From contig NZ_CP053627.1 in assembly GCF_013177435.1 (NCBI RefSeq), positions 1,440,001 through 1,472,000 of the forward strand: DNA of 32,000 nt, read 5' to 3'. The first letter of the stretch is position 1, and each line of letters begins with the position of its first letter. Below are positions 12,801 through 15,800 of this stretch, one piece after another. The position numbers are program-made. This stretch comes from Xylella taiwanensis. Its GTDB lineage: Bacteria; Pseudomonadota; Gammaproteobacteria; Xanthomonadales; Xanthomonadaceae.

Positions 12801-15800
12801 CTTGGCCCCTGGCCCATTGAATCCCGCGATGGGGACGCTTGGACCACACCCGACCATATAAGGACCGATTAATACAACTGACAAAATAACGGTACGCTTT
12901 ATCAGCGGCTTCCGGATGCATACTGCCATTGCAACCGGAATTGGTCGGTCGAAACGTCAAGGTCCAAAACTGCTGCCAAGGGATGCGACGTAATAAATCG
13001 GCATACGCGGCTGACTGAAGGCGGACCCCGGATTGATTGAACTGGGTGTTTAATAATTGACATAACTGTTCATCACGTTCTGCAAGAGACATCACCCCTC
13101 ATCAACGGAAAGATCACGGGCTCACGTATCCGTGGACATTGCCTACGGCACCGTGTGCACATCTCATTGACAGTGGTGCACGGCACAAAACGCCGCACAC
13201 GCACTGACAACAAGATGCACACACTATGACCACCGATACGCGATGAGAGAATATCGACATTTCACTTTTAAACACCCACTACATGTATTTAGATAAAGAT
13301 AAAACAGACATACAGCGCCAAGGTAAACCAAATAGCAAAACGAGGAAGAATCTCCTCCACAAAAAAACCAATCTTGTCTAGCCGAGAGGTACGACGCCAC
13401 CAAAACTTATATGGAGTCAGCAAACGAGTCATCAAGTAATTCATAGAAAATTGTAAATCGCTAGATGTCTAAATACTCAATGATTAAAAAGGAAAGCATA
13501 GAGCCCAGGCAAAAATATAAAAAAAGTAGGGAACGGCCAAAAGAAAGGTGTTCAAATAATGTATAGACATAATGCTTGCCTCAATAAAGCACATTCATCC
13601 AACTGATCCAATGCCGCAATACGAACATGGGACCAAAACTCCAACTGATCTGGAATCACCTCAAATAAATCAAATTGCGATGATCGCAATGCCTGAATAT
13701 CTGCAATCTCTAACGCCATACGAGCACCTCGCTCAGTATCGGTGATGCGCATACCCTACTCTCCTACTTCGTTTCATATGATCAATGCGCATATAAAAAA
13801 CTAAGCAGCCGCTACGGAAAGAGATTCCTCTAAACGATGCGACAGGCGGGTCAGTAAATCAGAAAAATCATGAAGATCATCAACAATACTGTAAGCAAGC
13901 GAAGCAACAGATGGATGATCTAACTCATCAGCAATCAATGCGATCGCTGATAAACAAACGTAAGTATCATGGTTACAAATAAAAGAGCCGGCACTACGTA
14001 AATGGCAAATATGCTCAGTCAGCTGCTGCCGGGACATCCGATTAAAATCAACGGGAATGCGCATGATCTAATGCTCCGCTTCAGTTTTAGCATCTAACTT
14101 AAATCGCTCAATAGCCAAACGACAAAGATCAGGAACCTGAGACTGAGACAATTTCCCAGAAGGAATAAACAACACTAAAAGGTCAAACGTCATACCGTCA
14201 GCAGATACACCTTCTTTCACCTGCAACATCTCTACACTCCTACCCTGCCCTACCCTTTGCTTAGAACACCTCCTCACCCGGGTATGGCTTAATGAAGAGA
14301 TGTGCAATCCAATACTCTTGGATTACAAATATGATTCAATACCCTTGGAGCATAAAAATCAAGAGGCTTGGTTCACAATGGATATAAATTTACTACTTGA
14401 CAAAGCAAAAGAAATGTATTCCGTGAAACAGGACAAAGAACTAGCACAGAAGCTAAAAATCAAAGCAACAGCAATAAGCAATTACAGAAAAGGCATATCA
14501 CTACCAGACGCAATAGCATGCTCAGCACTAGCAAATGCCACAGGACTACCACTAGCAAAAGTAATTGGAATCGTTGGAGAAGCGCGAGCAAAAAGCAAAG
14601 AGGAAAAAGCAGTCTGGCGGAAACTAGCAACAGCGGCCACGTTAGCATTAGGTGTAGGCGTTACCTCCCCTAACGTGTCAGAGGCGTCGAATCACGTGAA
14701 AAATAGATTATTCACAAAGTGGACAGATTATGCATTATGCGAAATGGGAGAAGAAGGTCGACACAGTACACACGAGAACTGTTAACTGCATTGAAAGCAA
14801 AACTGAATAACGTAAAAGCCATGCTAACGCCCGAATCGCTAGCATGGCTGTAGTTATCGAAGATCCCATCGCCGATCAAGTGCTCAATGAAAACTGGACG
14901 GGGTTTGCATTCAGAAACGGATATCTGGTGACACCGGAAAGACGGTACATCGAACCGTATCAACTGCGATGGCTATCACTCACATGCACACTGGCACGAG
15001 AATGGCAAAAAATGATGGAGCACGCGCGAGCGGTTCCATTACAAGGCGGCCCTGCCGCGAGCGATCATCAACGCCTCATTGACAACGCCCAAAAAACGGG
15101 TTTGCGTAACAGAAAGTGTCCTGACACGGACATAGGATCGGTCATCCTACTCAGCCAAGTACTGATACAACGCCAACACAAGCGTTAACGTAGGGGGTAA
15201 ACCCCCTACACCCCACTCAATCATTAATCGTCGAACAAATCAGCATGACGACCAGTACGCTCAAAGCGCACCACATCACCATCAACCTTATAGATTAACA
15301 ACCAATCCGGCTCAACATGAGCATCCCGGAAACTACGCCACTGCCCCTTAAGCGGATGATCCAAATACATCGCAGGCAACGGACTACCCTCAATCAGCAA
15401 AGTTATTAGAATCTTAAGTTTCTCTATGTCCTTACCGCGCTTCTGAGACACTCGCACATCACGCTTGAACTGCGAAGAATAAGCAGGACGGCGCATTAGA
15501 TACCAAGATCTTTAAACATGGCATCAGCACTTTCAGCATAATGCACATCCTCACCACACTCACTTTTAACAAAAGTCTCAACCGTAAGCCTATTAGGTGA
15601 GTGCATCTCAAAAGGCAACATTTTTTCACGAGCCACTTTAGTCAAGGTGATACGTATAAGATCAGATACGGTAAGGCCCATCGTCGCAAGTACAGAAGCG
15701 GCCTCATCTTTAAGAGCCTCATCAACTCTGGCACGCACAAGTGCATTTGCAGCCATAAGTTTACGATCCTTCACTATTTAGCAGAAAGAAAAATGTAGCT

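Follow-up and report, generated by a model that had tools for sequence, protein, structure and literature searches.

Attachment sites inside inovirus regulator genes of Xylella taiwanensis: a conserved in-frame tail and a candidate integration-state switch

Introduction

When a phage carries its attachment site (attP) inside its own regulator gene, does integration produce a second regulator isoform, and could the phage sense its integration state by it? The question is raised by an array of three inovirus prophages in Xylella taiwanensis, contained in a 32,000-nt stretch of DNA, henceforth referred to as the window, which corresponds to bases 1,440,001-1,472,000 of the single chromosome (2,824,877 bp, 53% GC). 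An earlier note on the window had proposed that attP lies within the regulator gene in both phage types present, and that free and integrated forms therefore encode different regulators.

Both the layout and the two-isoform idea are already published. In XacF1, attP lies within ORF12, which is split on integration; ORF12 stabilises the prophage and its deletion destabilises it (PMC4076744, PMC5666396). The XacF1 and Cf1c papers note the split without testing frame conservation or isoforms (PMC4076744, PMC5666396). In the Ralstonia phage RSS0, attP (dif) lies within the regulator ORF13, which is shortened from 156 to 130 aa on integration (Yamada 2013, PMC3816273), and the same 2013 paper advanced the two-isoform hypothesis, with different roles proposed for both forms (PMC3816273). 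Integration-dependent immunity has been proven for the mycobacteriophage BPs, with attP in the repressor gene and a loss of ~33 C-terminal residues (PMC3694055, PMC4557955). PSB15 of phiLf-UK binds the packaging signal and is required for assembly and dispensable for integration (bioRxiv 10.1101/2024.03.19.585677). In the literature searched, mostly without subscription journals, no paper was found on a tRNA-Lys version of this layout or on frame conservation, and no paper with DUF3693 was found.

Results

The prophage array

The three prophages lie to the right of dif and extend up to the tRNA-Lys gene at 30281-30356 (Table 1). Among 60 further genomes from the family, 30 have the same dif motif as the window. 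The array joins dif directly to tRNA-Lys/queC, and the right flank of the host dif is missing. Prophage 1 has no integrase, and its att cores recombine among assemblies; its Rep has the same length as in X. fastidiosa relatives, and the closest named regulator homologues are also from Xylella fastidiosa. Prophages 1 and 2 share 99% identity only over 5.9 kb (8409-14302 and 15845-21738, respectively) and differ at both ends. Prophage 2 (14746-22178) is chimeric, its left end being of the dif type and its right end of the tRNA type with a tRNA-type regulator, and should therefore not excise as a unit. Each prophage has a different pair in its toxin-antitoxin slot (PIN + MazE-like at 7634-8319, YafQ + RelB at 15224-15774 and PemK + MazE-like at 23267-23862), and two further putative pairs are found in a distant copy (genome 1,320,002-1,320,699 and 1,327,223-1,327,794).

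Table 1 Features of the window relevant to the regulator modules. Positions are those of the window.
Feature	Positions	Strand	Evidence or remark
Host dif (attL): XerC arm (host), 6-bp centre, XerD arm	7100..7127	+	At genome GC-skew maximum
Prophage 1 unit, 7618 bp between its two att cores	7128..14745	.	VapBC-like pair, Zot, structural genes, Rep, regulator
Prophage 1 regulator tail, 35 codons, stranded at attL, 33-nt allele	7129..7236	+	In frame with HTH-1 once joined; natural full-length protein P0153
DUF3653 gene (PSB15-like), prophage 1	7227..7571	+	Pfam PF12375; start overlaps tail stop by 10 nt
HTH-1, XRE-type HTH + DUF3693 regulator, integrated isoform, 135 aa (123 own + 12 out-of-frame residues)	14378..14785	+	Pfam PF01381, PF12472; translation
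Hybrid att junction	14718..14745	+	Alignment: phage XerC arm with 3 differences from dif; centre and XerD arm identical
Prophage 2-lineage tail, 32-nt allele, open 38 codons in I-M-R-N frame	14737..14853	+	Sequence
DUF3653 gene, prophage 2	14844..15188	+	Domain search
HTH-2, tRNA-type regulator, attP-like state, full-length isoform 158 aa	21808..22284	+	Sequence, domain search
Tyrosine integrase, frameshifted near 22320, before catalytic Tyr motif	22067..23035	-	Comparison with copy at genome 1328136-1329008
att core, copy of tRNA-Lys 3' part	22130..22178	+	
HTH-3, tRNA-type regulator, integrated (truncated) isoform, 127 aa	29962..30345	+	Sequence, domain search
tRNA-Lys(ttt), integration target of prophage 3	30281..30356	-	

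Regulators that read through the attachment site

HTH-1, whose start codon is backed by X. fastidiosa homologues, lies on the strand opposite to the structural genes, crosses the dif-like att as ..YALCEM and stops 12 aa further on. Joining 14378-14746 to 7129 in silico yielded a 158-aa ORF with 35 added residues, whose stop at 7236 overlaps the DUF3653 ATG (7227) by 10 nt; the start of the tail was refined to 7129, with 7126-7128 being the shared ATG. The in-frame circular joining onto the next gene's start, as earlier proposed, was thus reproduced, and the same protein exists naturally: P0153, a cluster member from a sister assembly, is HTH-1 with exactly the predicted tail. It is encoded at the start of a contig in a sister draft assembly, with a full prophage 1 after it, and the locus represents either a second copy in tandem or a circle junction captured in assembly. 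The exact attP junction was not found among the IMG/VR or metagenome contigs scanned.

The tRNA-type regulators cross the tRNA-Lys core instead, so that attP falls inside the regulator gene in both phage types. HTH-3 stops 4 aa past the shared core, within tRNA sequence, and HTH-2 continues for 34 codons past it, both as the earlier note had described. Since the full-length HTH-2 isoform is itself encoded in the chromosome, the isoform cannot be a strict reporter of state in tandem arrays. Own-end joins of tRNA-type units, including prophage 3 of the window, were in frame in all 8 cases, at two offsets; most hybrid junctions were not. At X. fastidiosa loci that share this tRNA-Lys core, five integrase-bearing units use one frame and two 3.1-kb units another. 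These 3.1-kb units (L222:7012-10159 and L224:9243-12386) lie between tRNA-Lys cores and are possible satellites; they have a regulator of their own, whose tail goes back to a decayed integrase end. A single-protein scan with HTH-2 gave no match, and none of the integrase relatives L157-L206 has such a regulator. A second tRNA-type prophage in the same chromosome (genome 1,320,778-1,329,008; L156) is 99.6% identical to prophage 3 over 5.9 kb. It has a different regulator, which crosses the tRNA-Lys core in another frame, and there the core is not within a tRNA gene.

The tRNA-type integrase frameshift is common to all sister assemblies seen (the same 322-aa form), and the copy at genome 1,328,136-1,329,008 retains the catalytic motif and has a foreign C-terminus. 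The proper C-terminal frame of the integrase runs antisense, in the same phase, to the HTH-2 tail. Of the two tRNA-type tails, tail A runs antisense to the last ~25 integrase codons in the same phase, and in tail B the KTLWKKL motif and an open frame persist despite decay of the antisense integrase frame. A tail that is mere antisense read-through of the integrase would fit the phase, but was rejected as an insufficient explanation since the motif and frame of tail B outlast integrase decay.

Frame conservation and selection on the tail

The circular junctions were rebuilt in silico across a sample of ~130 related loci by joining each regulator to the tail at the opposite end of its own unit. 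Such own-end joins were in frame in 83 of 84 dif-type units (80 of 81 unique), compared to 56% of cross-pairs. The att is read in all three frames, two or three of them within each tail class, with the tail always matching. Shuffling of frames within tail classes (100,000 trials) produced 35 matches of 80 on average and never more than 52; the sequences are related, and hence no strict p-value is attached to this test and the counts and ratios overstate independence. Stop codons upstream of attP in related phages had been named as evidence that would speak against the earlier proposal, and all 128 regulators are open to att. A tail dN/dS near 1 had been named likewise. Pairwise pN/pS in the tail frame was 0.39, 0.43 and 0.58 in three of four classes, versus 0.91-1.83 in the other forward frames, and these three values stayed below 0.6 after the last five codons were dropped; the fourth class (8 sequences) gave 1.13. 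Neither kind of counter-evidence was encountered, pN/pS lying below 1 in three of the four classes.

The tail, which is about 25-45 aa long in the dif and tRNA types, is basic, aromatic and conserved. Integrated regulators have arbitrary ends: 27 of 71 extend by ≤8 aa and 25 of 71 by >30 aa, with a last residue that is also arbitrary. Among deposited phage genomes with the regulator, 11 of 13 read in frame through attP to the DUF3653 start; in the Xf409 and phiLf2 records, the junction is out of frame and the regulator is fused with DUF3653, so the tail may not be essential. Taken together, the in-frame circles (83 of 84 dif-type, 8 of 8 tRNA-Lys-type), the three offsets and the pN/pS of 0.39-0.58 in three of four classes indicate that the tail is coding, as the earlier note had held probable, and the patterns of substitution support purifying selection on it.

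A neutral origin, with attP lying in a dispensable C-terminal region and the frame kept only against harmful fusions or polarity, appears very unlikely to us. It would accommodate the out-of-frame junctions in deposited phages, the low-confidence modelling of structure beyond residue 100, and tail A, whose same-phase antisense relation to the integrase end would alone favour an open frame, but it sits poorly with the lack of an early stop in 128 of 128 regulators, the near-perfect frame matching and the purifying selection.

Insertion at dif takes opposite orientations in two inovirus classes, of which one retains the XerD arm and the other the XerC arm (L030, L038-L050, L053, L061-L062 and others). 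Members of both are often found back to back around one dif, with attP inside the regulator in both. Stenotrophomonas-like inovirus sequences were also seen in assemblies labelled Nocardiopsis, Ligaoa and Rhodopseudomonas (L118, L128, L129), probably through contamination.

The 1-nt difference and the hybrid junction

The spacing between GAAATG and CTGTTA is 33 nt at the left end of prophage 1 (7123/7162) and 32 nt at junction 14746 (14741/14779), and this 1-nt length difference had been proposed as the cause of the unrelated end of HTH-1 in the integrated tandem state. The I-M-R-N frame, in which the 32-nt tail is open, is the one used by XacF1 and phiXv2. A pairwise comparison of the 32-nt and 33-nt tails of the window gave 8 synonymous and 8 non-synonymous changes (dN/dS 0.26). 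No cognate regulator head for the 32-nt tail turned up in this genome. Orthologous tails in X. fastidiosa use all three frames by way of A-run length, and junction 14746 is therefore read as combining a head and a tail from separate lineages. It is a hybrid junction, at which two lineages crossing att in different frames meet, and would be a by-product of their integration in tandem; in other arrays, 9 of 12 tandem junctions with an upstream unit are out of frame. The 32-nt allele may instead have arisen by decay, through a 1-nt deletion after immobilisation. Whether hybrid or decayed, the 12-aa end of HTH-1 is accidental. The length difference is accordingly a lineage difference exposed at a hybrid junction and not the mechanism; in a single insertion, the regulator tail is replaced by whatever sequence lies past dif. 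The proposal of two isoforms thus stands in respect of the split attP and the coding tail and falls in respect of this cause.

The 32-nt junction was also considered as the natural attP of a short-tailed lineage, on the strength of a third copy located 23 kb before the window begins. This was rejected because sister assemblies pair the head of that copy with the in-frame 33-nt tail. The variable A-run that sets the tail frame lies just 3' of att in X. fastidiosa (L027, L029, L030, L031) and is a possible slippage site.

Sister assemblies point to rearrangement between att sites. A phage remnant at genome 1,416,100-1,417,000 (L001/L004) contains a third att in inverted orientation, and a segment of 30-38 kb next to dif is bounded by inverted att cassettes (the remnant, and window 7100-7598 and 14649-15227). 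Eight head-tail combinations occur among the sister assemblies, made up of three heads (host dif, HTH-1 and the remnant) and three tails, as expected from ~30-38 kb inversions between cores or flanking cassettes. In these assemblies (L228-L243, of near-identical sizes), prophage 1 is shifted between dif and the HNH-TatD remnant, and dif itself is flipped; some of the drafts could be mis-joined, and several are complete genomes. L229 was considered as proof of an empty pre-integration site and was rejected as such, since two successive inversions yield the same arrangement, with which it is only consistent.

The packaging gene behind the tail

The prophage 1 DUF3653 protein (114 aa) has an N-terminal DUF3653 domain only and no HTH; the XafT layout (HTH with a C-terminal DUF3653) was not found. 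It is 43% identical to PSB15. The label "XafT-like" given to this gene earlier is thus misleading, the Xanthomonas DUF3653 homologue being needed for packaging and not for integration. Across 57 distinct junctions, the tail stop lies from -10 to +12 nt from the DUF3653 start in every case, and after integration the tail and the DUF3653 gene lie at the prophage end opposite to the regulator.

These stops would also fit a simpler account, which we consider unlikely, in which coupling is all that matters: the frame is kept so that ribosomes stop on the PSB15 start, the tail residues matter little, the isoforms are alike and any switch amounts to operon breakage. Besides the 57 of 57 stops on the DUF3653 start, this account draws on the wide sequence differences between tail classes and on the class with no purifying signal. 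It is opposed by the pN/pS below 0.6 in three classes even without the last five codons, and by the tRNA-type frame, which is kept in 8 of 8 joins although no DUF3653 gene lies behind that tail. The preferred reading is that integration most likely removes the tail and also parts PSB15 from its promoter and its coupled stop.

Structure models and further scans

In the structure models, the HTH domain is predicted with confidence and a long helix is present; the stretch around att is a disordered linker, and the tail forms a helix of its own, at low confidence and without defined packing (pTM 0.47 and 0.49). As the HTH domain is modelled apart from the linker and tail, the cut would leave the DNA-binding part whole. 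The fold is XRE-like, with weak Foldseek matches only (E about 0.1). Amphipathicity of the tail was not above shuffles, and an amphipathic-helix signal was rejected as explained by composition. A hydrophobic segment before att is weak in the three regulators of the window (0.7-1.2) and above 1.6 in 71 of 80 relatives. Promoter and terminator scans performed at chance level.

Discussion

The proposed module consists of a promoter, an HTH/DUF3693 regulator with attP in its 3' part and, in the dif type, a DUF3653/PSB15 gene that overlaps the regulator stop. In the circle, the regulator reads through attP into the tail. A crossover at attP, by XerCD at dif or by the phage integrase at tRNA-Lys, removes the tail and leaves an arbitrary end. 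The tail-less prophage isoform would keep the HTH and DUF3693 helices and could maintain repression and immunity, while the tailed episomal isoform may be tuned down by membrane tethering or turnover. The packaging factor would lose its promoter and translational coupling, and virion assembly would be off until excision. We lean slightly towards this account, in which one crossover acts as an integration-state switch with two outputs: the tail is lost, and the packaging gene is cut off from both its promoter and its coupled stop. The reconstruction supports the encoding of different isoforms by free and integrated forms; a functional difference between them, or sensing of integration state by the phage, is a candidate consequence.

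The dif-type module is, by its sequence features, a member of the XacF1/Cf1c kind, with the DUF3693 HTH, the in-frame attP and the DUF3653 overlap all found, and XerCD integration and excision are predicted for it. XacF1 ORF12 and Cf1c cp8 (as well as Xf109 ORF10, phiLf-UK, phiXv2 and Cf2) likewise have an HTH/DUF3693 regulator with a dif-like attP in its 3' part and a stop overlapping a DUF3653 gene, and the XacF1/Cf1c kin have a ~30-aa tail and a regulator split on XerCD integration (PMC4076744, PMC5666396). The window differs from XacF1 and Cf1c in its low sequence identity to them, in a tail that is basic and not hydrophobic, and in its tandem array with hybrid junctions. RSS0, from a different host, is likened to the window by layout, and its two-isoform idea is likewise a hypothesis. 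PSB15 of phiLf-UK and XafT of TLC-phi (PMC6744903) resemble the window gene in having a DUF3653 domain beside attP and a repressor, at opposite prophage ends after integration. In the Vibrio rstR-attP-xafT module, however, attP lies between the two genes (PMC12715192) and not inside the regulator, and the window gene, with its N-terminal DUF3653 and no HTH, is PSB15-like rather than XafT-like.

The geometry is also that of BPs, as attP lies within a regulator that integration shortens and the tRNA type even has an int neighbouring rep-attP and a tRNA target. A mechanism of the BPs type, in which the tail is a C-terminal degradation tag whose removal by integration yields a stable repressor, nevertheless seems quite unlikely here. 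The 33-aa loss in BPs is a precedent, and Ala is the last residue in 59 of the 73 distinct tails, with the ending AA in 19, among them -ELAA and -EIAA. Against this, the BPs tail is a proven ssrA-like tag while none is evident in the window tails, which end in -LAWL and -AAHH, and the Cf1c/XacF1 class ends in -RTGQ; the terminal residues are partly forced by the overlapping DUF3653 start codon and ribosome-binding site, and just four or five independent classes were sampled. In BPs, moreover, int is co-oriented with rep, whereas the tRNA-type int of the window is convergent, antisense and frameshifted and the dif type has no integrase and relies on host XerCD. The module was therefore not classed with BPs. 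The best inovirus candidates for a true degron of this type are the tails ending in ssrA-like -EIAA or -ELAA (L017, L019, L010, L120, L136, L115).

A broader reading, which is possible but which we hold as rather doubtful, is that Xanthomonadaceae inoviruses share a recombinase-independent integration switch, retained as XerCD/dif, in either orientation, gave way to a phage integrase and tRNA-Lys in the module; a single crossover would strip an inhibitory tail from the repressor and uncouple the essential packaging factor PSB15, with inversions between att cores reshuffling heads and tails within the chromosome of this Xylella species.

What is added here to the XacF1 and RSS0 papers is family-wide evidence of selection on the tail, the frame being matched at all three offsets, in both dif orientations and in the tRNA-type integrase system. 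A second and simpler output, the lost coupling to the packaging gene, is also indicated. Caution is warranted with annotated prophage regulators of this DUF3693 family, as these carry accidental C-termini. The hypothesis made in 2013, that the free and integrated forms of the regulator have different roles, is now directly testable.
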